Shown: positions 29,710 to 50,226 of the stretch, in pieces
Position numbering within the stretch: position 1 is the stretch's first letter
How the letters are laid out: every line of letters starts with the position of its first letter
Assembly (NCBI GenBank): GCA_009929845.1
Contig: RZZM01000001.1
Location: 14,166-78,165 of the forward strand
Reading direction: 5' to 3'
DNA length: 64,000 bases
DNA from: Spartobacteria bacterium
GTDB lineage: Bacteria > Verrucomicrobiota > Kiritimatiellia > RZYC01
Program-made: the position numbers and the translations under genes
The notes under the pieces: model-generated
The model's database searches: none
The model's input: only the letters and a program-made list of their open reading frames with translations
Told to the model about the DNA's origin: nothing

Positions 29710-31128
29710 ATGTCGACGGCCGCCGTACAACGTGATGCGCGAAACCGCATCCTCCTCTTCCTGCTTATGGCCGCCGCCGCGTACTTCCTCAGCGTGGCGG
29801 TCTGGGAAGTGCGGATATCCTACCTGCTCGGGGGGATCCTGTTTGCCATAGCGCTTGCGATCTCCTTTATACGCGGCACCGACGCCTTGTACCTGGTCAT
29901 TTTTGCGATGCTCTTCAGTCCGGAAATCGGCGGGTCCGGCGGACCCGCCGCGTCGGGCGAAGGGGGTGGGGGACTCGTCCTGCGCGTAGAGGACGTCCTG
30001 CTGGTGGCCACGGGGATGGGCTGGCTGCTGCGCACGGCCTATCTGGGGCGGCACTTCGGCATCCCGCGCACCCCCGTGAATTCAACCATCGGCTACTATA
30101 TCGCGGCCTCTGCCATCTGCACCCTCCTGGGGGTCATCGGCGGTTCGGTGCGCCTCGACCGCGGCTTCTTCAACAACCTGAAATACTTCGAATACTTCTT
30201 CCTTTATTTCATGATCCTCGCCCATGTGCGGGATAAGCAGGACATCAAACATATGATCATTGCCATGCTGATTGTGTTTTTCCTGGCCATGATCTACGGG
30301 TATTTCATGATGGCCGCCGGCGAGCGCGTGTCGGCGCCGTTCGATGAGGAGCCCAACACGTTCGGCGGCTATATCGTGCTGCTCTACTGCGTGGCCCTGG
30401 GCATTCTGCTTTCAATCCGGCCATCCAATATGCGTGTCATCATCGCCGCGCTGCTGGTCTTCGCCATACCGCCGTTTTTGTTCACCCTCTCGCGCACCTC
30501 CTACATGGCCATGGCGGGCGGTATCCTGGCCTTCATATTCGTCAGCAGCAAACGCTGGGTTATCCTCGGGGTGACCCTGGCCCTGTTGGCCATCATCATG
30601 GCTGGCGCCATGGTCCTGCCGAAAACCATCGAGGAACGTATCGCAGGCACGTTCAAAAAAGGCACCCAGTATCATGTGCAGGTCGCCGGTATCGATCTCG
30701 ATCCGTCCGCCTCGGCGCGCGTGCTCTCCTATAAACAGGCCGTGGATGTCTGGCTCAAGAGCCCGTTGTTCGGTCACGGGGTGACCGGCACGCACTTCAT
30801 CGACGGACAGTACATGCGGCTGCTCGCGGAAACCGGCGTCTTCGGGTTAAGCACCTTCCTGATCCTGATGCTCGTCCTTCTGCGTGAAGTCTGGCGGGTT
30901 TGCAAACGTACAAGTAACGAGCTGTGGCAGGGCGCGGCCCTGGGCTTTTTCTGCGGTATTGTTGCCATGATGGTGCATGCCATCGCCGCCAACACCTTCA
31001 TCATCGTGCGCATCGCCGAACCCTTCTGGTTACTCGCCGGCCTTGTCCTCCTCATGCCCTACCTGGAAGCCCTCCCGGACCCGGCCCCCCCCGCTGAAGT
31101 CCCCGCCTATCCGTCACAGGTTGTTTAG
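29710..31128 (+). CDS. O-antigen ligase/polymerase-like (Wzy-type) integral membrane protein
   Basis: A 472-aa protein with 10-12 TM helices and a large periplasmic loop, positioned in the EPS block. Confidence 0.55.
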   Translation: MSTAAVQRDARNRILLFLLMAAAAYFLSVAVWEVRISYLLGGILFAIALAISFIRGTDALYLVIFAMLFSPEIGGSGGPAASGEGGGGLVLRVEDVLLVATGMGWLLRTAYLGRHFGIPRTPVNSTIGYYIAASAICTLLGVIGGSVRLDRGFFNNLKYFEYFFLYFMILAHVRDKQDIKHMIIAMLIVFFLAMIYGYFMMAAGERVSAPFDEEPNTFGGYIVLLYCVALGILLSIRPSNMRVIIAALLVFAIPPFLFTLSRTSYMAMAGGILAFIFVSSKRWVILGVTLALLAIIMAGAMVLPKTIEERIAGTFKKGTQYHVQVAGIDLDPSASARVLSYKQAVDVWLKSPLFGHGVTGTHFIDGQYMRLLAETGVFGLSTFLILMLVLLREVWRVCKRTSNELWQGAALGFFCGIVAMMVHAIAANTFIIVRIAEPFWLLAGLVLLMPYLEALPDPAPPAEVPAYPSQVV

Positions 31129-31160
31129 GGGTTTAGGGGGTAGGTGGTTAGGTAGTAAAT

Positions 31161-31277
31161 CGACAAAGCTTGCGACTTATGTTGCGTGCGGCGTTATGTT
31201 GCGTGGGCATAGCGCGTAGGCATAAGTGGCTATGGGTGGAGCTTTCATGCCTTATGACGCAACATAACGCGACAAAG
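31161..31277. repeat. Imperfect hairpin structure flanked by 8-bp direct repeats (CGACAAAG)
   Basis: GCGTTATGTTGCGT (31190-31203) pairs with ACGCAACATAACGC (31258-31271). CGACAAAG occurs at both ends. Confidence 0.5.
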
Positions 31278-31303
31278 TATTGAGAATCTGGGGGTTTTCG
31301 TAA

Positions 31304-31548
31304 TTCGTGTGATTCGTGATCACTTTTCTGTCGCGAACTTTGTCGATTCTCTCTCCGCGTCCCCGCGTCTCTGCGTTAAAAAATATGCGCGCAGAGGCGC
31401 AGAGGCGCAGAGAAGGAAAGAAAAAAGGTAAAATTCTCAGGTTATTGAGAAGTTAAAAAGGCATTTTGCGGATTTTTCACCCTTTTTCCCCCTTCTCTGC
31501 GCCTCTGCGCCTCTGCGCGAGAAAAAAGTGATCACGAATCGCACGAAT
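31304..31548. repeat. Nested inverted-repeat element (MITE-like, or a structured RNA) between the Wzy-like gene and prfB
   Basis: The outer arms are ATTCGTGTGATTCGTGATCACTTTT (31304-31336) and its reverse complement (31516-31548), about 33 bp with 3 mismatches. The inner arms CGCGCAGAGGCGCAGAGGCGCAGAGAAGG (31388-31416) and 31491-31519 are a perfect 29-bp inverted repeat. The core is AT-rich and contains TTCTCA-N6-TGAGAA. Confidence 0.7.
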
Positions 31549-31740
31549 GACCTGGAGCAGCAGAGCCGCAACCAAATTCTTTTTTGCCCACAGATTTCGC
31601 AGATTTACACAGAATGCCTTGAAGAAGGGGCGGGAAATGAAAAAGGGGACAAACGGCCAATGGTTGGTTTACATTCGGGATGTTTTTGCATACAACGTGG
31701 CTTTCCCGTGTGGAATTTGCAATAGAGGAGTATAACGGAC

Positions 31741-32863
31741 ATGATTGATGAATTGAGAGAAGAGTTGAAGAGCTTTGCGGAAGGTGTCGAAGAGATGCGG
31801 GGGTATCTTTGACGTCCCAACCAAAATGATGGAAATCGCCCGCCTGGAAGAGCGGGCCACGGCGCCGGACTTCTGGAACGACCAGCACAGGGCCCGCGAG
31901 TTAATCGCGGAAACAAACAAGCTCAAGGCGGTGGTCAATCCCTTTAAAAAACTGGCCACGGCAGTCGAGGACGCGCTGCTGATGCTTGACCTGGCGGAGG
32001 AGGAGCAGGACCAGGCGTTGCGCAACACGGTGTTGAAGGATGTGCAGGAATCGCTGATATCGCTGCGGTCGGATTACGAGCGCATCGAAACACAGTCGCT
32101 GTTGAGCGGCCCGCTTGATCCCAACGGGGCATACCTGAGCCTGCACGCGGGGGCTGGCGGTACAGAATCCTGCGACTGGGCGGACATGCTGTATCGTATG
32201 TACCGGCGGTACCTGGAGAATAACGGCTACGATGTGGTGGTGCTTGATTACCAGCCGGGGGAAGAGGCGGGCATCAAAAGTGTTTCATTCAATGTCATTG
32301 GCCCGTATGCCTACGGGTACCTCAAGTCGGAGCGCGGGGTACACCGCCTGGTCCGGATCAGTCCGTTCGATTCCAATGCGCGCCGTCACACCTCGTTTGT
32401 GTCGCTGGATGTGGTGGCGGAGGTGGATGACAGCATCGAGGTGGAAATCAACGAAAACGATTTGCGGATTGACACCTTCCGCGCGAGCGGGGCGGGCGGA
32501 CAGCATGTGAATACCACCGATTCGGCGATCCGAATCACCCACATCCCCACCGGGATTGTGGTGCAGTGTCAGGCGGAACGATCACAGCACAGCAACCGGG
32601 ACAAGGCGTACAAGATGCTGCGCGCCCGGTTGTACGAATGGGAACTCGACCAGCAGAAAAAAGAAATGGAGCGTTTCTATTCGGCCAAGGGCGAAATTGC
32701 CTGGGGCAGCCAGATTCGTTCCTATGTGCTGCAGCCCTATACCATGGTGAAGGACCACCGCACAGGCGCGGAAACCGGAAATGTCGAGGCGGTGCTGGAT
32801 GGCGACCTGGATATTTTCATCGAGGCGTACCTGAAAAAGGAATGCGGACGTGAACATTCTTGA
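31741..32863 (+). CDS. prfB: Peptide chain release factor 2, expressed via a programmed +1 ribosomal frameshift
   Basis: Frame 1 reads MIDELREELKSFAEGVEEMRGYL and ends at the in-frame TGA at 31810. Frame +1 continues DVPTKMMEIAR... through the SPF and GGQ motifs (GGQHVNTTDSAIRITHIPTGIVVQCQ). Confidence 0.9.
31795..31813 (+). other. Programmed +1 frameshift site of prfB (SD-like GGGGG, then slippery CTT, then TGA C)
   Basis: The sequence is ATGCGGGGGTATCTTTGAC. GGGGGTATCTTTGAC is identical to the autoregulatory prfB frameshift site described in E. coli. Confidence 0.85.
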
Positions 32864-38618: not shown

Positions 38619-38820
38619 ATTTTTTTTAGACATGATTCACAGGATGACTTTTTGAGAAGTTACAAAAAAACGACAAAAACCGTCAAAACGGCCAAAAAAT
38701 GGCCATTTTTACGGTTTTTCAGCTCAAAATGGCCATTCTAGGGCAAATTTTGCGAATTTTACACTGAAATTGGCCGTTTTTTGTGCGTTTTCGGCGCGGA
38801 ACATGCGCGACTCGCCGTGC

Positions 38821-38928
38821 GCGGCAGGCTAAAGCCTGTACAACGAGCGGCAGGCTAAAGCCTACAACGAGCGGCAGGCTAAAGCCTCTGTACAACGAGC
38901 GGCAGGCTGACGCCTGAACTGCGAACGG
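38821..38928. repeat. Tandem array (about 4 units, 24-30 bp) of the REP-like hairpin unit GCGGCAGGCTAAAGCCTGTACAACGA
   Basis: Units lie at 38821-38846, 38847-38870, 38871-38898 and 38899-38928, the last degenerate. Each carries the inverted repeat CAGGCT/AGCCTG. The array sits between convergent genes. A homologous single unit is at 13925-13956. Confidence 0.8.
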
Positions 38929-41778: not shown

Positions 41779-44700
41779 GTGTGTATAGACATTTTGTCCG
41801 GCAAAGAAAAGAAAGGGCTTAACGTGAAAGCAAAGCTCAGACTGTGGTGTATGTGTCTGCTAATTGGAGGGGTGGTCGCGTCTGTCCCTGCATCCGCTGA
41901 GGTCATCCTTCAGGTGTTTAACAACACCTGGGCGGAGATCACGGAAAAAATTCCGGAATACGTCGAGGTGGGCTATACCGCCCTGTGGCTGCCTCCGCCC
42001 CAGAAGGCGGGCAGTATCTGGTCGGTGGGATATGACCTGTTTGATCCGTTTGATTTGGGCGGCATCGACCAGAACGGGTCCGTGAAGACACGCTACGGCA
42101 CGGAAGCCGAATTAAAGAATCTGATGGCGACGGCGCACCGTTTTGGATTGCGGGTATATTTTGACAACATCATGAATCACCGCGGGTATCACATTCCCGG
42201 CTACGATGCGAACACTCCGCTGGATGTCTACCCCGGCATGCTGCCGGAGGACTTTCACTTGCAGGTGACCCCGGAAGGATTCTACCGGGCCTGGCCGGAC
42301 ACCGTGAACTGGGGCAGCACCTGGGAGGTGCAGAATTACTGGCTTTCGGGGCTGATCGATATCTCCCACGAGGAACCCAACGCCAATTTCGGCCAGAACG
42401 CCGGCGACACCCACCCGCGCATCAAGTTCCTTCGTCATCCGAATAATCCGGAATTCTACGCCTACCTGCCGGATGATACCTACGTGGGGTTCAACAGCCC
42501 CCAGATAACAACCAATACCCTCGCGACCAATTCCTGGTATTACGAGGAGGATGTCGGCGCGTATCTGAACCGTTCTGTGCGCTGGCTGGTGAATGAAACA
42601 AAATGCGATGGACTGCGTCTGGATGCCGTGAAGCATGTGCCCGGCTATTTCTTCGGTGAGCAGTGGGCGGGGGACAAGGATTCCAGCGACGCCGGCTATT
42701 GTGGACAGGCCCAGGTGGAGTTCAATCTCTCGCGTGGCTTCAACGATTGGGACAATCACCGCGATACGGTGTTTGATACCGAGCTGGATTTCGGGCGCAA
42801 TGACCTGATGATTTTTGGTGAGCACATGGGCGAACCGCCACCGTACAGTGACTTCTGGGCGGCCGGCATGCGCCTGTTGGATGCGCGAACGCACTCGACA
42901 CTCAATGAACGCCTGGGGAATCCCTGGAGCAACCTGAATGGCCTGGACAGTGCGGATTACATTGATGGGGTTCAGATGGGGCAGCAATTGGGCATCTATT
43001 ATGCCAAAAGCCATGACGACGGGATCGCCAATCACGAGGAATTGCATTATGCGATCAATCTGACCCGCGCCGGATTACCGGATATCTATACCGACGGAAA
43101 CAGGCAGGCGGAAACACTCGGCGAAAGCGGCGGGGCCTTTCCCCGTCACGCCAATACCTGCTACCTCGGCCAGTGGGGGGATAGCCGCATTCCCAATCTG
43201 GTGTATATGCACAACCAATTTGCCCGTTCGTGGCAGTATCCCCGATTGTCTGATGACGATGTGGTGGCCTACGATCGCATTGATAAACGCGAGAACTCAG
43301 GGATGTCGGACGCTGATGCCTGCGTGATGTGTTTCATGTTGAATGACAATTACGCGGACGGGGCCTATCGCGAGGTCTCAACCGCGTTTCCTGAAGGGGC
43401 GTATCTATGGCAGTATGCCACAGGCGGCGGTAATTTTTACACGCAGGTCGACGGGGGTAAAATCAAGGTGATCATCCCCTCGGGCGGGTATTTTCTGTTT
43501 TCCTGGCGCAGTCCCGAAGAGTCGACCCTCTGGAGTTACGGCGGCGGCAACCCGTTGACGATTTATGAAAACGGAGAGGAATGCGGCTGGATGGGGTATT
43601 GGCGGTATGATGGGCCGGACGGCGATCCGAATTTCAATCCGTATGCGTCGGGTGTAACCACCAACTACGGATACAAATGGTGGGTGCCGCTGGTCACCTC
43701 CCGAACCAACCTGCGTTTCGCCACGCGCGTGGACGGCTCCGCCTATCATGTCATGTTCAAATTGGATGGCGGAATGGATTTGAACGGGGATGCGCACGCC
43801 CCCAGCGGCGACATGCGCGATCATCCACCGGGAAATGAAGGCAGTTACGATGTCTTTCTGGGGTACGAAGATGCTGATTTCGTGAAGCGTATCGGACCGG
43901 AGAAATTTGCGGACAGCGATACGTCCTCCAATACGATCGGTTCAGCGGGTAGCGGCAGCTATGAAATGACGATCGGATCGGACGGGGTGAATGTCAATCA
44001 CGGGAACGGCGCGAATGATTATGACAATACGCAGGGCGCTTCTTTTGTATACCATGACCCGACGGCCTCCACCGACTTTGGCGAAAGTCAGTTCTGGCCC
44101 CCGCCCAGCAATGCGGCCAATCAGGATTTGTGGATTCAGGTCAAGGTCGGTCAGGCGGGTGACATTAACCGGGTCTATCTCTACTATTCCATTGATGGCG
44201 AAACCTGGCCGGAAGGCGCCGGCGGTGAGGCGGTAGGCAACAATACCTATGTCACCGAGATGTATTGGACGACCAACTGGGTGGACGGGTCGGACACCAA
44301 CGACTGGTGGAAGTGCTCGATCCCCGGCGGCTTCCCGGCCGATACGGTGTTCCGGTACAAGATCGGCGCCTGCCGCGAACAGGGGTACGCAGGCGCGCCG
44401 TGGTATTGTCCGTTCCCCAATTCGGAATACGACATCGCCATGAAGACCCGCATGATGGGCCTCTGGGAAATCGACGACTTGAATGTAGATACCAATGTCT
44501 ATTATCAGCACAACGACTGGGGCAACGTCATTACCGGGCTGGTGGACGGCTTCCATGTCATTCGCTCGCGCGCCTTCCTGCAGCGGGAAACCCAGGCGCC
44601 CATCTACAACACCTTTACGCAGCCGTTCTATCTCGACGCCGAAACCGTGCAGGGCGAACTGATCTACCCGGCTGAAAACGATACCCTCTACAATAACGAA

Positions 44701-47700
44701 TATGGGTGCGTGCTGCGTACGGATTGGACCTGCAAAAAAGTATACTTCCATATTGAAGACAACGACCCTTCGAATGATGACGCCGCTACGGGTCGTACCC
44801 TGGGCAACGGCACGAACGCGGCGGGGGCCTGGGCCTGGGCGGAAGCCTCGGAAAATATCCCTGCCCTGAATATTGATTCTGTTTACCCCAAGGAATGGCG
44901 CTTTAACTACAGCAATATCCCATCGAACGGTGCTGCGGTTCTGTATATCAAGATGGCGGAATTGTCCTCCTCCACCAATTATCTGGATACGGCCGAGGAC
45001 GGACATTTCGGTGAAATCGTACGCAACCTGAACGCATCCGGCCCGGGCTATCGCATGTTTATGGCATGGCCACAGAATAACGGCGACACGGTCGGTGAAG
45101 GCTATGATATGAAGGTGCACTTCAGTTGGAACCTCTGGGAGGGCTTTGACGAGACCACCGTGAAAAATCGTTTCCTGATCACGATCGATGGCGAAACACA
45201 GGGGCGCGATAACTATTCCCTCTCCTGGGGCGGGGCCGGAGACTACCACGAGCTGGCCTATTCGTTGCCTGACCTCTATGACGGTTCTCCCGAAAACGTG
45301 CATGAGATTGTCGTCACCCACACCAATGCCGCGGGCAATGGCGTGACCCTGAACGCCGCCCGGGAGGTGCTGGCCTATCCCAGTTCGACGGGGCCCACCA
45401 TCCAGATCACCGATCCGCCCGAGTACGACAGCGACGGGGCGCGCTACCGGATCATTTTGCCGGATTTGGCGTCGCCCACACCGACTGATCGCATGTACCA
45501 GGTGTCTGTGCAAACGGACACGACGGTCAAGGACGTTTGGATTGATTTTACGAACAGCTCCACCGGGTATATCACGCCGGTGTCCGCCACCAATTACCTG
45601 ATGAGCAACGCCGTGACGGTCGTCAACGGCACCAACCTGGTGCTGGGCACAAACTTTAATTCGGTATTGTCCGCCGGGAACCGAATCCTCATCGCCTCCA
45701 ATGAGGTTACCGTTGCCACCATCCTCAACGACACCAACCTGCTGCTGCGCTTTAACTGGGACCAGGCCTCGGGCACCAACGTCGCCGCCTACCGCATCGG
45801 CGGAAATCCCACGGTCGAGGGCAGCGCGTATATCTGGAAGTTCTGGTGGACCAATATGACCAAAGGGTCCTACACCTTTGTCGCCAGCGCGACCACCAAT
45901 ACCGATACCTACAATGTGCATGCCGCCGCTACCCGTAATGCCACCGTGATCTTCCGCGAAATTGTCAATGCCTCCACCAATGATCTGGATGATGACGATG
46001 ACGGTCTCTTTGATGCTGATGAAACGACGTCCGTGGACTTACCCTCCTCCAATCCGGAATCCTGGACGAATGGCGTGGTGCATCAATGGTACTCCTTCGG
46101 AAAAACCGATCCGCTGATGCCCGACACCGATGGCGATGGGCTCCCCGACGCGCTCGAACTTGGCTTCCGCTATGCCTCGTCGTCCACCGATACCAACACC
46201 GATACCAACGGCGATGGCTATCCCAACTTCATCATCGACCTCGATCCGCCGATATATAATACGGTGCCCGATAACAGTGATATGCCCGGCTTCAACCTGA
46301 ATGCGTCCCGCACCTCGAAACTCATGGGGTCGACCACCGACCCCAATAATCCGGATTCCGATTATGATGGTCTTCCTGACGGCGTTGAAGACGCCAACCG
46401 CAACGGATGGGTCGACGGGGACCACGATGCCCTGCCGGTTGGTTATGAGCCCTGGGACGGATGGGATTATCCCCGGGGTGTCTGGTCGGCGTCCTGGACG
46501 GAAACTTCGCCCAACCTGGCGGATTCCGATGGCGACGGGCTCAGCGACGGATACGGCGAGGATGGCGACCTGAACGGGGCCATCGCCGGCGACATCAATT
46601 CCAATCGCGTCTATGACCCCGGGGAGCAGTGGACGGAAACCGATCCGTTGAACCCGGATACGGACGGTGACGGGCTGCCTGATGGTTGGGAAGTGACCTA
46701 CAGCCTGAGTCCGTGGGATGATGGGGTAATCGGGCATACCAATATGTACGACGGCTCCCTCATTACCACCAATACGCATGGACCGGACGGAAACCCCGAT
46801 GGGGATTATATTGTCGACGGCACCGTGACCAATCCGTATACCAATATCCGGGAATATGAAAATGGCACCAACCCACGCTATTTTGACCCCCTGGAGCCGC
46901 CGCCGGAAGGCAGCATTGTCATCGGCCCCGGTCCCTCGCTGGGCGAACTGACCGGCTTGGGCACGCAATATACCGAGTTCACCGACTGGACTGCCGACGA
47001 TGTGCTGGCCCTCGATGAATACGAAGGAGCGGGTAAAAATTCAGAAGGCGGTGACATCTATAGAAAGTGGGATGAATGGGACAGCTCCCGTGACCTTGTC
47101 GCGTTCTATGCCCGCGACGGTGGTTCCGATGTAAATGAATTCTATTTCCGTGTCGACTTGCATGATCTGAAGGCGCATGCGGAAGAGGGAAATGTGGATT
47201 TCTACGTGGTCATCGATACCGGCAATCCGTCCGTCGGCGAGATGGCCCTGCCGGACGAGGTGGACTGCACCACCTCCATGCGCTGGGAGGCGGTCGTTGC
47301 CGTGTATGATTCAGGAAACGGCGCGGTGTATGTCGATACCGACCGTGAGCACAACACGACGGCATCCTATCAGAACCTCTATGACTATGGGGTGGTGCGT
47401 CGCGATATGTCCGACCCGATGGGTTTTATCGAGGCCTACTTCAACTCCAGCCTCGACGCGGTCGAGTTTTCTATCCGCCGGTCCGGTCTCACCGATTCCA
47501 CATCCGGCGCCGGCTGGAACGGCCTGAACCCGGGCGACTTGAATTATCAGGTCTATTCGGTCGCGGATGGCACTTGTAATACATGCGGAGAAGAAGGGGG
47601 CGCTGGCGGGGGCGATATTGGTGGTCGTCCGGATATCCGGGACGCCATTTACAACGACTACATCGCCGAGGATTTCTGGAATGCGCAGGCGGGTTTGCCG

Positions 47701-50226
47701 CATGTGCTGATGTATTGGATCCCCGGTGACGCGGAGCCGAATCTCGCCAAGATATCCACCATCATCCACGGCAACCAGGCCGTTCAGCCGGGCAGTACGA
47801 TTCAGGCCCTGATCAACAACGGTGAGGGCGGGGGATACGGACGTCCTCTGGGTTCCCACGGGCTCTTCCAGGCACCCTTGAACCTACATGTCACGCCCAC
47901 CCTGGCCATGGCCATGGAATGGGCCAAAACCGACCCGGCCAATACCAACGACTGGCGCAAGACCAAATACGCCTCCGGCCCGCTCTTCAACGACTGGATC
48001 GCGGAACTGTATGCCACCAACCTGGTCTACCTGTTCGCCTCCACCTTCTCTGATCATATGATGCCGTATTTCACCGAGGCGTATAACAATGATAACATTG
48101 CGCTTGCCGAGCAGGTCCTGCATGAAATCTACGGATTCACCCCGGACTCGAATACCGTGTTCTGGACGCCCGAGCGCGTGCTCGATTCCGATACCTTCGG
48201 CAAAATTCTCAGCGCCGGCTACCGGCACACCTGTGTCGACCAGTTAACCCATATCTGGAACTGGTTCGGACGTGACGAAGCGCTGGGAACGCCCGGATAC
48301 CGTATCAATCAAATGGAAGACGTCGATTGTTTCGTTATCAATAATGGTCCCAGTGCCGTGATGTTTGAGAATTACGATGAAGGCCTGCCGATTGACCTGC
48401 GCAATCTGCTCATACGCAAGGGCCTCGAAGACACCACCAAAGACCAGTTGGTGAACCTCTTTATGCCCTGGGAGGACTACGCGGATACCGACAATGCGAA
48501 TGCCTACGATGTCAACCTGCGATGGATCGCCAATCACCCGTGGATTCAACCCGTCGGATTGGAAGAAATAGCCTCCGACCGTTCATTTGGCGGACATACC
48601 TGGTGGAGCGTCGAGCGCGGTTCTTCGCTTGCGCTTTCCAAGCAAAGTCATGTCTGGCTTAATCATGCCAGCGATGATGACTTCGATAACTGGTATCTTG
48701 GCGGTACCCTCCATGAGGGCCTCCAGGATAAATATTTTGACATCCGCCCCGGCGTGGCCATGACCAACAAGTACGGCATGCTGTACACCCCGGGCGTCGT
48801 CGCAGATGCATGGGACACGGTCGATGGACTTTCTGACCCCGACATCTCCGCGCTGGCGCGCGCCGCCCTGCACGCCTCCACCTTCGAGACCGCTTTCCAT
48901 AATGAAGATGAAAACGACCTTTCCCGCTGGTCAACCGGCGATTTCATCCATCCGGTCAGCAACTATTCTTCGTTGGCCACTTTCTCGAAGATTGCCCAGT
49001 CCCAGTCCCGCTTTGCCGCGGTCTATGACCGGGTCGACCAGTGGGCCGCCTCGGCGGCCTCGGTGACCACGCCACAGACCCAGGCCCTTGATGTGGACCT
49101 CGACGGCGAGCAGGAATATGTGATGTACAATGACCGTCTGTTTGTTCTGATCGAGCGGATCGGCGGGCGTGTGATCGGGGTCTGGGTCCGCGACATCCTC
49201 AACGCCGGGGTCTACCAGGCCGCCGGCAACCTGGTCAGTTACGCAGGCAGCGAGGACGAAACCGAAAACTACTATAATGCCGACACCAATGGCGTGGTCG
49301 GCGCCTACCGGACCTCCCTGCTCAAGGACTGGTGGGCGGACACCGCCGACTATATCAACGATATCTATACCGCTTCCCCGGTGGCCGGAGGGTGGCAGAT
49401 GACCTCATCGAACGGATGCATCCAGAAGACCCTCACCCTGGCGGAAAAGTCCTGGGAGATGGAAGTGGACTACGTTTTGTCCGGTGCGTTGGCGGGAACC
49501 ACGCTTTACATACGCAACGGGTTCTCCCCGCATCTCTATGATTTGCTGGTGGCCGGGCAGGGGACCCTGGGCGATCTGCAGGATGCCTCCGGCGTCCTTA
49601 CCCTGGAAAACACCAATTACAATACTACCGTGCTGACTACCATTGGCTATGCGGACGGCACGCACGCTGCAGGCTATGTTTCCACGGCTATCGATCAGCC
49701 GTCCTCCGGCGCCCAATTCCATACCATGAACATGCGCAACCAGGCGCAGACCCACCAGGTCGAGCTTTCCGGGTCCGCCAGCTTCTCCTTCTCGCTCGGG
49801 TTCCGCGCCCTGCCGTCCGACTGGAACCAGGACGGCATGCCCAACGACTGGGCGGACGAGTACGGACTGGGGACAAACGTCCAGGGCGGCGCCTCCCAGG
49901 ACGCTGATGGTGATGGCGTCATCAACAAGGATGAATATGTCGCCGGCACCAATCCGAATCAGGATACCGACTACCTTTATGTCTCCCAGACCGCCCCCAC
50001 CGGAACCGGCATCCGGGTACAGTTCCCGACCAAGGCCGGTCGCGACTACCGCATCTGGTACATGAATTCGTCCCTGCAAACGCCCAACTGGAGCAACGCC
50101 ACCCCGACGCTCATCAGCGGCACCGGCAGCACCTACGAATGGATCGACGACGGTTCCAATACCGACCCCAACCCCGCGGACACCACCAACCGCTTCTACA
50201 AAATCCAGGTCCAGTTGCCCCAATAA
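41779..50226 (+). CDS. Giant secreted multidomain glycoside hydrolase (2815 aa): GH13 alpha-amylase-family domain, beta-sandwich region, thrombospondin-type-3/EF-hand-like Ca-binding repeats, GH57-like domain, dockerin-like module and a C-terminal beta domain
   Basis: GH13 regions are GLRLDAVKHV (region II) and YAKSHDD (region IV). The Ca-binding repeats are DTDGDGLPDALE, DSDYDGLPDGVED, DSDGDGLSDGYGEDGD and DTDGDGLPDGWE. GH57-like motifs are IIHGNQAVQP, LNLHVTPTLAMAMEW and VFWTPERVL. A signal peptide probably begins at GTG 41824 (VKAKLRLWCMCLLIGGVVASVPASA). Confidence 0.85.
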   Translation: MCIDILSGKEKKGLNVKAKLRLWCMCLLIGGVVASVPASAEVILQVFNNTWAEITEKIPEYVEVGYTALWLPPPQKAGSIWSVGYDLFDPFDLGGIDQNGSVKTRYGTEAELKNLMATAHRFGLRVYFDNIMNHRGYHIPGYDANTPLDVYPGMLPEDFHLQVTPEGFYRAWPDTVNWGSTWEVQNYWLSGLIDISHEEPNANFGQNAGDTHPRIKFLRHPNNPEFYAYLPDDTYVGFNSPQITTNTLATNSWYYEEDVGAYLNRSVRWLVNETKCDGLRLDAVKHVPGYFFGEQWAGDKDSSDAGYCGQAQVEFNLSRGFNDWDNHRDTVFDTELDFGRNDLMIFGEHMGEPPPYSDFWAAGMRLLDARTHSTLNERLGNPWSNLNGLDSADYIDGVQMGQQLGIYYAKSHDDGIANHEELHYAINLTRAGLPDIYTDGNRQAETLGESGGAFPRHANTCYLGQWGDSRIPNLVYMHNQFARSWQYPRLSDDDVVAYDRIDKRENSGMSDADACVMCFMLNDNYADGAYREVSTAFPEGAYLWQYATGGGNFYTQVDGGKIKVIIPSGGYFLFSWRSPEESTLWSYGGGNPLTIYENGEECGWMGYWRYDGPDGDPNFNPYASGVTTNYGYKWWVPLVTSRTNLRFATRVDGSAYHVMFKLDGGMDLNGDAHAPSGDMRDHPPGNEGSYDVFLGYEDADFVKRIGPEKFADSDTSSNTIGSAGSGSYEMTIGSDGVNVNHGNGANDYDNTQGASFVYHDPTASTDFGESQFWPPPSNAANQDLWIQVKVGQAGDINRVYLYYSIDGETWPEGAGGEAVGNNTYVTEMYWTTNWVDGSDTNDWWKCSIPGGFPADTVFRYKIGACREQGYAGAPWYCPFPNSEYDIAMKTRMMGLWEIDDLNVDTNVYYQHNDWGNVITGLVDGFHVIRSRAFLQRETQAPIYNTFTQPFYLDAETVQGELIYPAENDTLYNNEYGCVLRTDWTCKKVYFHIEDNDPSNDDAATGRTLGNGTNAAGAWAWAEASENIPALNIDSVYPKEWRFNYSNIPSNGAAVLYIKMAELSSSTNYLDTAEDGHFGEIVRNLNASGPGYRMFMAWPQNNGDTVGEGYDMKVHFSWNLWEGFDETTVKNRFLITIDGETQGRDNYSLSWGGAGDYHELAYSLPDLYDGSPENVHEIVVTHTNAAGNGVTLNAAREVLAYPSSTGPTIQITDPPEYDSDGARYRIILPDLASPTPTDRMYQVSVQTDTTVKDVWIDFTNSSTGYITPVSATNYLMSNAVTVVNGTNLVLGTNFNSVLSAGNRILIASNEVTVATILNDTNLLLRFNWDQASGTNVAAYRIGGNPTVEGSAYIWKFWWTNMTKGSYTFVASATTNTDTYNVHAAATRNATVIFREIVNASTNDLDDDDDGLFDADETTSVDLPSSNPESWTNGVVHQWYSFGKTDPLMPDTDGDGLPDALELGFRYASSSTDTNTDTNGDGYPNFIIDLDPPIYNTVPDNSDMPGFNLNASRTSKLMGSTTDPNNPDSDYDGLPDGVEDANRNGWVDGDHDALPVGYEPWDGWDYPRGVWSASWTETSPNLADSDGDGLSDGYGEDGDLNGAIAGDINSNRVYDPGEQWTETDPLNPDTDGDGLPDGWEVTYSLSPWDDGVIGHTNMYDGSLITTNTHGPDGNPDGDYIVDGTVTNPYTNIREYENGTNPRYFDPLEPPPEGSIVIGPGPSLGELTGLGTQYTEFTDWTADDVLALDEYEGAGKNSEGGDIYRKWDEWDSSRDLVAFYARDGGSDVNEFYFRVDLHDLKAHAEEGNVDFYVVIDTGNPSVGEMALPDEVDCTTSMRWEAVVAVYDSGNGAVYVDTDREHNTTASYQNLYDYGVVRRDMSDPMGFIEAYFNSSLDAVEFSIRRSGLTDSTSGAGWNGLNPGDLNYQVYSVADGTCNTCGEEGGAGGGDIGGRPDIRDAIYNDYIAEDFWNAQAGLPHVLMYWIPGDAEPNLAKISTIIHGNQAVQPGSTIQALINNGEGGGYGRPLGSHGLFQAPLNLHVTPTLAMAMEWAKTDPANTNDWRKTKYASGPLFNDWIAELYATNLVYLFASTFSDHMMPYFTEAYNNDNIALAEQVLHEIYGFTPDSNTVFWTPERVLDSDTFGKILSAGYRHTCVDQLTHIWNWFGRDEALGTPGYRINQMEDVDCFVINNGPSAVMFENYDEGLPIDLRNLLIRKGLEDTTKDQLVNLFMPWEDYADTDNANAYDVNLRWIANHPWIQPVGLEEIASDRSFGGHTWWSVERGSSLALSKQSHVWLNHASDDDFDNWYLGGTLHEGLQDKYFDIRPGVAMTNKYGMLYTPGVVADAWDTVDGLSDPDISALARAALHASTFETAFHNEDENDLSRWSTGDFIHPVSNYSSLATFSKIAQSQSRFAAVYDRVDQWAASAASVTTPQTQALDVDLDGEQEYVMYNDRLFVLIERIGGRVIGVWVRDILNAGVYQAAGNLVSYAGSEDETENYYNADTNGVVGAYRTSLLKDWWADTADYINDIYTASPVAGGWQMTSSNGCIQKTLTLAEKSWEMEVDYVLSGALAGTTLYIRNGFSPHLYDLLVAGQGTLGDLQDASGVLTLENTNYNTTVLTTIGYADGTHAAGYVSTAIDQPSSGAQFHTMNMRNQAQTHQVELSGSASFSFSLGFRALPSDWNQDGMPNDWADEYGLGTNVQGGASQDADGDGVINKDEYVAGTNPNQDTDYLYVSQTAPTGTGIRVQFPTKAGRDYRIWYMNSSLQTPNWSNATPTLISGTGSTYEWIDDGSNTDPNPADTTNRFYKIQVQLPQ

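Follow-up and report, generated by a model that had tools for sequence, protein, structure and literature searches.

A putative mosaic of short palindromic repeat modules upstream of prfB in a Kiritimatiellia genome and a possible wider class of octamer hairpins

INTRODUCTION

Repetitive extragenic palindromic (REP) units are imperfect palindromes of 20 to 40 nt that carry a GTAG or CGTC tag and fold into stems of 5 to 13 bp with loops of 2 to 20 nt (PMC3733652). REP units and REPINs (REP doublets forming hairpins) have been proposed to protect mRNA 3' ends and to terminate transcription (PMC3116915, PMC3337134, PMC3733652). Here, we describe a block of nested inverted repeats at positions 31154 to 31617 of a 64,000-nucleotide stretch (the window) of contig RZZM01000001.1 from a Spartobacteria bacterium of the Kiritimatiellia (assembly GCA_009929845.1). 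The block lies between the last gene of an exopolysaccharide (EPS) cluster and prfB, the gene for release factor 2. An earlier note on this DNA had proposed a miniature inverted-repeat transposable element (MITE), possibly nested, or else a large structured RNA or a bidirectional terminator or insulator.

Two other systems have a similar architecture. Bacterial interspersed mosaic elements (BIMEs) consist of REP units (also called palindromic units) and defined linker motifs and are not known outside the enterobacteria. Foldback transposons are eukaryotic and kilobase-sized, and some have coding capacity; we know of no bacterial counterpart. For a Mutator/Foldback family, see PMC3169594.

In this study, we found that the block is a nonrandom assembly of nested inverted repeats and that it is missing from relatives in which the prfB gene order is kept. 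By its sequence and polarity, the core at 31388 to 31519 is assigned to a class of octamer hairpins that is dispersed in bacterial and viral genomes. The reading that we put forward, with confidence and doubt in about equal parts, is that small palindromic repeat modules piled up at a variable gene junction and that the block is the resulting lineage-specific mosaic, with its core in the octamer foldback class, rather than a dedicated regulator of prfB.

RESULTS

Nested inverted repeats form the main hairpin

The outer inverted repeat of the main hairpin has arms of 36 nt at 31300 to 31335 and 31516 to 31551 (plus strand), which are 89% complementary in the repeat search. The left arm, also found by a pattern search, consists of two ATTCGTG units, GTGATCAC, and a T-run, and the right arm consists of an A-run, GTGATCAC, and two CACGAAT units. 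A 25-mer of the outer arm occurred once per strand, with 0 mismatches at one site and 1 at the other, and nowhere else in the window, and shuffled sequences are expected to contain none.

Nested in the outer repeat is the inner inverted repeat, CGCGCAGAGGCGCAGAGGCGCAGAGAAGG, which is perfect over 29 bp and is built of three GCGCAGAG units. The left arm (31388 to 31416, plus strand) is of the purine type, CG(CGCAGAGG)2CGCAGAGAAGG, and the pyrimidine-type right arm (31491 to 31519) is its exact reverse complement. Tandem Repeats Finder (TRF) reported exactly 3.0 perfect copies (100%) of an 8-nt unit in each arm. A 22-mer of the inner arm matched just two sites in the window, the two arms themselves, with 0 expected in shuffles. 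At 82% complementarity, the inner repeat lengthens to 49 nt (31388 to 31436 and 31471 to 31519).

The inner arms are separated by an A/T-rich core loop of 74 nt (31417 to 31490), of which the outermost 20 nt or so at each end still pair imperfectly, and the outer arms are separated by 180 nt, an arrangement of two inverted units and a spacer as in a REPIN. The core contains TTCTCA-N6-TGAGAA at 31433 to 31450; a 6-nt palindrome of this kind is not significant alone.

On the left side, an insertion of 52 nt (31336 to 31387) separates the outer and inner arms, as seen in the repeat search and by TRF at period 8. It contains a degenerate solo octamer arm of the pyrimidine type, TCTCCGCG TCCCCGCG TCTCTGCG (31352 to 31375), followed by TTAAAAAA. 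The solo arm (31352 to 31383) is 75% identical to the right inner arm (31494 to 31525) and is therefore a third arm copy in inverted orientation. It is also 71% complementary to the left inner arm side (31390 to 31427), so that an alternative pairing is possible. When the insertion is taken out, the outer and inner left arms run on without a break for about 65 nt, as a mirror image of the right side. The nested arms, the core with its small palindrome, and the left insertion had all been described in the earlier note, with outer arms of about 33 bp and an insertion of 50 bp; each of them is present, and the insertion proved to be an extra repeat module.

The arms of the core recur as octamer hairpins in many genomes

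We defined the octamer-hairpin class as a (CGCRRAGR)n purine array as the 5' arm, a complementary pyrimidine array as the 3' arm, and an arbitrary loop. In the window, the octamers at 31390 to 31413 read CGCAGAGG CGCAGAGG CGCAGAGA, giving the two or more tandem CGCRRAGR units that the class requires, and the pyrimidine arm at 31491 to 31519 lies downstream across the 74-nt loop, in agreement with the class polarity. A search with the 20-mer GCAGAGGCGCAGAGGCGCAG, with one genome per species, returned at least 120 stretches in more than 10 phyla, cultured isolates included. The matches listed came from the Cyanobacteria, Planctomycetota, Verrucomicrobiota, Kiritimatiellia, Acidobacteriota, Gemmatimonadota, and Chloroflexota and from the Spirochaetota, Bacteroidota, Myxococcota, and Alpha-, Beta-, and Gammaproteobacteria; the cultured carriers among them were Sphingomonas, Nostoc, Anabaena, Chitinilyticum, and Undibacterium.

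A pyrimidine array followed within 300 nt downstream, across loops of 12 to 255 nt, in 50 of the 121 purine arrays and preceded the purine array in 2. Because of this purine-then-pyrimidine polarity (50 versus 2), the octamer arrays are not plain microsatellites. The outer flank of the class is rich in T, with CA, CG, or AC at its end, and typically a T-run stands before the hairpin and an A-run after it. Copies elsewhere have arms of 2 to more than 5 octamers. Sister arrays in the same loci (CGCAGAGA, CGCGGAGG, CGCGGAGA, CGCAAAGR, CGCGAAGR, and CACGAAGA) all conform to CGCRRAGR or CACRRAGR.

The flanks of the inner hairpin in the window were compared with this pattern. The right outer flank, AGAAAAAAG, is A-rich and matches it. 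The left flank, TTAAAAAATATG, is A-rich, unlike the T-rich flank of the class, because the solo arm is inserted there, and the ancestral left flank, CACTTTTCTGTCGCG, matches. On its loop side, the purine arm continues in a purine run (..CGCAGAGAAGGAAAGAAAAAAGG) that is mirrored by a pyrimidine run (CCCTTTTTCCCCCTTCTCTGCG..), and the same was found in five other loci of the class (L002, L027, L091, L115, and L120).

Copies in other genomes share further features with the window hairpin. In two Sphingomonas loci (L049 and L085), the hairpins are nested likewise, with an outer (CGCGAAGR)3, a spacer, an inner (CGCAGAGG)3-4, a loop, and the mirror image. In a Brocadiaceae genome (L121), three copies have common CCAAGGCAAC-(CGCAGAGG)n arms, including a 10-nt extension, and the loops are unrelated. 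A relative within the Planctomycetes-Verrucomicrobia-Chlamydiae (PVC) group (L056) has a hairpin with TTTTAA/TTAAAA flanks.

In the IMG/VR viral collection, the 20-mer GCAGAGGCGCAGAGGCGCAG gave 40 stretches, with 4 to 7 arrays in some contigs, and (CGCGGAGA)n gave 19, compared with 0, 1 contig, and 1 for three composition-matched permutations. In a search of the whole block against plasmid and phage records, matches were confined to the octamer arms, in replicons of Sphingobium, Sphingomonas, and Sphingopyxis and in Thiodictyon and Scytonema, where the DNA is unannotated; no phage records matched in that search. A 21-mer of the outer arm matched one intergenic three-unit array (L127) in the JGI metagenomes, together with a coding coincidence in alaS (L128).

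When 214 neighbors of 116 arrays were compared all against all by BLAST, no recurrent gene family emerged. Array-adjacent open reading frames (ORFs) in a Chloroflexota metagenome-assembled genome (MAG) (L083) and in Sphingomonas sp. Leaf22 (L085) look by their N termini like prfA (release factor 1). With 2 of the 116 arrays near prfA-like ORFs and with prfB in the window, the adjacency to release factor genes is probably a coincidence. The idea that the arrays act as part of a 5' untranslated region or as translation enhancers drew no support from the distances to ORF starts, which were equal for both orientations.

We also analyzed the pairing in 49 hairpins. The mismatches were 93 G-T and 93 A-C and were overdispersed (P of about 0.009), in part because of related phage copies. 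A 27-nt loop segment was oppositely oriented in two related viral contigs. This speaks only weakly for inversion, because the segment is itself a short tandem module and is found in further loops.

Several side observations were made on members of the class. Solo purine arms of the form TTTTTAA(CGCAGAGG)n, head to tail and with no pyrimidine partner, occur in a Kiritimatiellia MAG (L015, 4140 to 4330) and in a Victivallales MAG (L036, 4860 to 4940). In the former, the arms make up a higher-order repeat of about 65 nt that lies upstream of a small, putatively GxxExxY-like gene; this gene was included in the neighbor BLAST, which found no recurrent family. A 9.9-kb viral contig (L164, IMGVR_UViG_2510461066_000001) carries seven octamer arrays, all on one strand, with (GGAGAAT/GCAGAAT)n and (ATCTGTGGTC)3 arrays beside them; intergenic DNA built almost wholly of short tandem modules seems typical of such viral genomes. 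In the loops at L161 (4152 to 4303) and L121 (6664 to 6807), very short ORFs begin a few bases past the purine arm; examples are one of 28 amino acids (MKKSKIVFKKLTPAQKILAMFEAAKSKQ) and one for a lipobox-like peptide that is small and hydrophobic. They may have arisen by chance or may be small genes that the arms frame.

The block is missing from relatives that keep the prfB gene order

Two relatives keep the order prfB-IGPS-PRAI-PALP-YicC-Gmk, one (L123) with an RF2 that is 84% identical and the other (L124/L125) with an RF2 that is 80% identical. The gene upstream of prfB differs: it is a Wzy_C gene in the window, a set of small helix-turn-helix ORFs in L123, and a xanthine/uracil permease gene in L124. 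The spacers upstream of prfB in the two relatives (about 265 and 87 nt) contain no such repeat units. Since both keep the prfB-trp order without the block, the block is not a conserved prfB regulator. A comparison with relatives was among the checks that the earlier note had named, and the outcome, with conserved synteny and a missing block, favors mobile or dispensable DNA over a regulatory structure. The RF2 homologues, of which those in the two relatives are the closest, place the organism in the PVC group; those in named Kiritimatiellae, Verrucomicrobiota, and Lentisphaerae MAGs are 64 to 68% identical.

In the window, the upstream gene (29710 to 31128, plus strand) encodes a Wzy_C protein (O-antigen ligase/polymerase-like, Pfam PF04932) and is the last gene of the EPS cluster, in which it is preceded by GT1, WbqC, DegT, GT4, AAA_22, HD, Poly_export/SLBB, and Wzc-like ATPase genes (Pfam). 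The prfB gene (31741 to 32863, plus strand) has the PCRF and RF-1 domains of RF2 homologues and a programmed +1 frameshift site, CTT TGA C, at 31807 to 31813, and it is followed by IGPS, PRAI, and PALP genes (trpC, trpF, and trpB homologues). The spacer between the co-oriented Wzy_C gene and prfB is 612 nt, of which the block takes up about 460 bases. The repeat block begins 26 nt past the Wzy_C stop codon and ends 189 nt ahead of the prfB start codon. No transposase, recombinase, or Y1_Tnp domain was found in the 40 window ORFs scanned.

In an independent Logan assembly of the same organism (SRR8327731), one contig (L001) ends at 31153 and another (L122) starts at 31612, and both breaks lie outside the inverted repeats proper. 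Two small ORFs from the middle of the block had no match on record in this assembly. The breaks could reflect coverage loss over a strong hairpin, population heterogeneity, or repeats elsewhere.

Further short modules fill the spacer

Upstream of the main hairpin, short G-rich tandem units (31123 to 31153, plus strand), GTTTAGGG twice and GGTAGGT/GGTTAGGT, overlap the stop codon of the Wzy_C gene (TRF). They are followed by the left arm, AATCGACAAAGCTTGCGAC (31158 to 31176, plus strand), of an interlocking inverted repeat of 19 nt and 89%, whose partner at 31330 to 31348 ties the upstream hairpin to the main element.

A small hairpin module of 91 nt occupies 31177 to 31267 (plus strand). In the repeat search, its unit had just three copies in the window, all of them here. 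The module ends in perfect 11-nt terminal inverted repeats, TTATGTTGCGT (31177 to 31187 and 31257 to 31267), with GCGAC directly on both flanks, and the left terminal repeat is duplicated internally at 31194 to 31205. The upstream hairpin that the earlier note had set apart at 31161 to 31277 is indeed there, with perfect arms of 14 nt (31191 to 31204 and 31257 to 31270) and, outside them, the CGACAAAG direct repeats (31161 to 31168 and 31270 to 31277). A 15-mer of this hairpin gave only chance-level matches in IMG/VR, all without a partner.

At the other end of the block, a unit scan found three further short purine-type units, CACAGATTT CGCAGATTT ACACAGAAT (31588 to 31617, plus strand), of the same sort as the outer-arm units. 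All such short units of the window are restricted to this single spacer.

The block is predicted to fold stably and lacks terminator and promoter signatures

The region from 31140 to 31570 had a predicted folding energy of -195.8 kcal/mol on the plus strand (z score, -10.7) and -187.7 kcal/mol on the minus strand (z score, -12.1), and 0 of 100 shuffles were as stable. The inner hairpin folded as DNA at -54.1 kcal/mol (z score, -11.3). At the gathering threshold, Rfam gave 0 matches across the whole window. In E-value mode, it returned just subthreshold plant and animal microRNA hairpin models, for example, at 56.5 bits against the 135 required. The suggestion of a large structured RNA is thus not borne out, given also the absence of the block from relatives.

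On the plus strand, both hairpins are followed by A-runs and not by the U-tract of a Rho-independent terminator. A TTTTTT run follows the inner hairpin on the minus strand only, where no gene converges, and so the suggested bidirectional terminator finds no support either. A terminator scan gave two tiny minus-strand sites inside the left arm and one weak site at 31654. No sigma-70-like promoter was found in 31000 to 31800 on either strand, by a consensus that may not fit PVC promoters.

Some other candidates were considered for this region. A sign change of the GC skew at about 31.1 kb, taken as a possible replication origin, vanished at the 2-kb scale; the skew stays positive throughout the window, and the dip is gene specific. 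Integron attC sites were set aside, as only some copies of the class have AAC/GTT ends, and so were type III restriction sites (CAGAG and CGAAT), boxA, and possible DnaA boxes at 31580 to 31610.

Octamer hairpins are gained and lost in Sphingobium

The repA-repB spacer of five Sphingobium chromids contains a hairpin of about 150 nt whose arms drift by single transitions. The loop is homologous among the five replicons, and the hairpin is therefore vertically inherited. Two related replicons that have diverged, S. indicum pSRL2 and S. parapaucimobilis p2, lack the hairpin in their 62-nt spacer. At the convergent phosphatase/glcB junction (L200 to L205 and L198), two adjacent hairpins of different unit types are each independently present or absent, and strains without hairpin 1 have a small GC hairpin in its place. 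Strain TomTYG46 appears to have lost hairpin 2 via a deletion between two directly repeated pyrimidine arrays, which suggests that the arrays promote local deletions.

From these presence and absence patterns, it follows that members of the class come and go at the level of strains to species, that they recombine and attract insertions, and that octamer hairpins occupy the positions of terminator hairpins. As a separate observation, the chromid of Sphingobium sp. TomTYG72 (L130, about 670 to 810) contains an unrelated element of 141 nt with inverted termini of about 20 nt (CTAGGGCCGCTCGACATTCAG at the left end). It adjoins the pyrimidine arm of the repA-repB octamer hairpin and is not in the sister strains.

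Other repeats and a long ORF in the window

Elsewhere in the window, five palindromes, TTTTTCCAAT(G/C)ATTGGAAA, are spaced by about 31 nt at 3840 to 3985 (TRF, 3.6 copies, 89%). They sit in a minus-strand ORF (3511 to 4353) whose NTP_transferase match covers residues 12 to 133 only, and they could be an operator-like array or a gene-disrupting repeat insertion. At 38640 to 38916, four tandem units of 24 to 26 nt, GCGGCAGGCTAAAGCCTGTACAACGA, each form the stem-loop CAGGC-TAAA-GCCTG and resemble a REP cluster; ahead of them, A/T runs alternate with GGCC/CGG over about 150 nt. An ORF of 2,815 amino acids (41779 to 50226) matches an alpha-amylase catalytic domain at residues 52 to 182 only, and the rest has no Pfam match (E value of ≤1e-5).

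DISCUSSION

The block is REP/REPIN/BIME-like and resembles a MITE, yet it departs from each in defining features. Like REP units and REPINs, it is short, noncoding, intergenic, and dispersed, with two inverted units and a spacer that give a long hairpin (PMC3116915, PMC3337134, PMC3733652), and REP units and REPINs, too, are often found at gene 3' ends and in clusters or mosaics and are present in some strains and absent from others. However, the arms in the window are nonpalindromic tandem CGCAGAGG arrays with no GTAG or CGTC head. Within a REPIN family, the spacer is conserved, and REPINs are lineage specific and tied to REP-associated tyrosine transposases (RAYTs) (PMC3116915, PMC3337134), whereas the loops of the octamer class are unrelated and its arms cross phyla and have no gene association. 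The terminal inverted repeats that flank RAYT-like genes carry a GGGGWSAS motif and not octamer units. With BIMEs, the block shares an intergenic mosaic of short motifs in alternating orientation between co-oriented or convergent genes, but its modules are other than REP units and linkers, and each is a short tandem array.

MITEs are likewise small and noncoding, with terminal inverted repeats, nested insertions, and a patchy distribution among relatives. The main element in the window differs from them in having no target-site duplication, in an interior that, across the class, is not conserved between copies, in arms that are simple tandem repeats, and in the absence of a matching insertion sequence (IS) or transposase among the 40 window ORFs and the neighbors of the 116 arrays. 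Foldback transposons are the nearest analogue in design that we know of, and the likeness is one of architecture only: long inverted arms of short tandem repeats, a variable number of units, and heterogeneous or absent loops. A Rho-independent terminator would share the GC-rich hairpin just past a stop codon, and a GC hairpin does stand at the octamer-hairpin site in sister Sphingobium strains. Such a terminator differs from the block, which has no U-tract on the transcribed strand, loops of 74 and 180 nt, and stems of 29 to 49 bp, and the T-run before and A-run after the hairpins of the class are the reverse of a terminator's arrangement.

Four other explanations were weighed against the mosaic. 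A terminator-like hairpin behind the EPS operon may have expanded by 8-nt slippage and been symmetrized by template switching, in which case the element was never mobile and the octamers elsewhere are convergent. Such growth in situ would fit the exact 3.0-copy tandem arrays in both arms, the variation of unit number from 2 to more than 5 elsewhere, the drift of arms by single transitions at orthologous sites, the small GC hairpin that replaces the octamer hairpin in sister strains, and the lack of both a target-site duplication and a transposase in the 40 window ORFs. It leaves unexplained why the octamer and its transition variants are 20 to 40 times commoner in IMG/VR than composition-matched permutations, why the outer flank is commonly T-rich and the polarity fixed, why three copies in one genome (L121) have in common a 10-nt extension beyond the octamers, and why a solo inverted arm lies between the outer and inner left arms. 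We regard this origin as unlikely. Still less probable is the classical or nested MITE, that is, an IS deletion derivative whose terminal inverted repeats of 29 to 36 bp are recognized by a transposase acting in trans. The long terminal inverted repeats (36 nt at 89% and 29 nt at 100%), the absence of the block from relatives, the 91-nt module whose perfect 11-nt termini have GCGAC on both sides, resembling a 5-bp duplication, and the unrelated 141-nt element inserted beside an octamer hairpin in TomTYG72 are what such an element would lead one to expect. Neither the outer nor the inner arms of the main element have a target-site duplication, however, and one copy in the window, no transposase in the 40 window ORFs, interiors that are unrelated between copies of the class, and arms of tandem simple repeats, which are unlike the terminal repeats of IS families as we know them, all speak against it. 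Of the earlier proposal, the nested palindromic modules stand, and the arms belong to a dispersed class; a MITE in the strict sense is not supported.

A recombinase-driven inverton and a cis-acting RNA both assign the block a regulatory role at this locus. In an inverton, a site-specific recombinase would flip the segment between the repeats and change the orientation of a promoter near the EPS cluster or prfB. Perfect inverted repeats around a short A/T-rich segment at a surface-polysaccharide locus, conserved arms that enclose different DNA within one genome (as with invertons that share one invertase), the 27-nt loop segment inverted between two related viral contigs, and the breaks of the independent short-read assembly on either side of the block are in line with this idea. 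Yet there is no promoter-like site in 31000 to 31800 on either strand (a weak point, as PVC promoters may differ) and no recombinase in the 40 window ORFs; many loops of the class, at 12 to 40 nt, are too short for inversion, the inverted 27-mer, a short tandem module in its own right, turns up in further loops as well, and the assembly breaks, at 31153 and 31612, fall outside the repeats. We consider an inverton the least probable of the explanations weighed here. A cis-regulatory RNA, such as an attenuator, leader, or processing element for prfB or for the end of the EPS operon, would rely on mutually exclusive pairing of the segments 31352 to 31375, 31390 to 31412, and 31495 to 31518. The extremely stable predicted folds, the alternative pairings (71% for the solo and purine arms versus 100% for the purine and pyrimidine arms), and the position of the block in the 612-nt spacer between co-oriented genes are compatible with it, but the block is not conserved upstream of prfB at 84% and 80% RF2 identity, has no match at the Rfam gathering score, has no plus-strand U-tract after either hairpin, and ends 189 nt ahead of the prfB start codon, and the same arms stand beside unrelated genes in other genomes. 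Dedicated regulation of this kind is therefore very doubtful.

In the mosaic that we put forward, arms would have arrived as units, by insertion or duplication, within or next to a hairpin that was already there. Arm pairs may then be kept identical by intrastrand template switching (quasi-palindrome correction), together with slippage of the 8-nt unit. Any activity of the block is probably limited to that of a 3' RNA hairpin downstream of the EPS operon. Read-through from the operon would yield RNA that folds into a very stable hairpin starting 26 nt after the Wzy_C stop. Like REP units, this hairpin could form a barrier to 3' exonucleases and to read-through, would likely be a substrate of RNase III, and might thereby keep EPS transcription separate from prfB. 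The insulator that the earlier note had also suggested would be plausible in this generic sense.

We tentatively suggest, as a possibility that we rate below the mosaic itself, that the arms represent an undescribed class of foldback-type dispersed repeats that spans phyla and occurs in bacteria and phages, with tandem CGCRRAGR units, fixed polarity, heterogeneous loops, nesting, solo arms, strain-level turnover, and no associated gene. A keyword search of the literature found only work on REP units, REPINs, and MITEs, and an exact-sequence search found no mention of the octamer arrays or of five sister arrays; most subscription journals lie outside its coverage, and the word "undescribed" is thus provisional.

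Several results weigh against the mosaic and the class. The main element has no target-site duplication, as no direct repeat flanks the outer arms (..GGGGGTTTTC and CTGGAGCAGC..) or the inner arms. The block is a single copy in the window, and the composite outer arm is almost unique in the JGI metagenomes. The enrichment estimate comes from the IMG/VR viral collection only, since the scan of the genome collection gives a lower bound and was run without a control pattern. Probes of selection at the RNA level pointed neither way: purine arrays were no nearer to ORF starts than pyrimidine arrays, and the G-T and A-C mismatches in the 49 hairpins had no consistent strand bias relative to the direction of the flanking gene. 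No mobilizing enzyme was identified for the class, and the unrelated loops between copies fit no known mechanism of transposition. The perfect arms, moreover, could equally have grown in situ by slippage and palindrome correction.

Taken alone, the locus matters little: this piece of intergenic DNA is dispensable, probably does no more than end the EPS transcript, and may have caused an assembly break. In practice, octamer hairpins break short-read assemblies, yield spurious small ORFs, and mimic microRNA-like hairpins in covariance-model searches. The broader point is that one octamer and its transition variants form hairpin arms between genes, with a fixed polarity and no linked gene, from cyanobacteria to spirochetes, the PVC group, acidobacteria, proteobacteria, and viral contigs. 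If the arms are indeed an undescribed class, there would be a conserved and so far unknown way of making or mobilizing short palindromes, or else a sequence-specific function across phyla. A candidate for such a shared function would be an RNA 3'-end module or one that interacts with the ribosome or RNases, as the units end in the Shine-Dalgarno-like RRAGG. If the class holds up, it would be a new kind of small dispersed repeat, and the question would be what makes or moves the hairpins and why they have this sequence.

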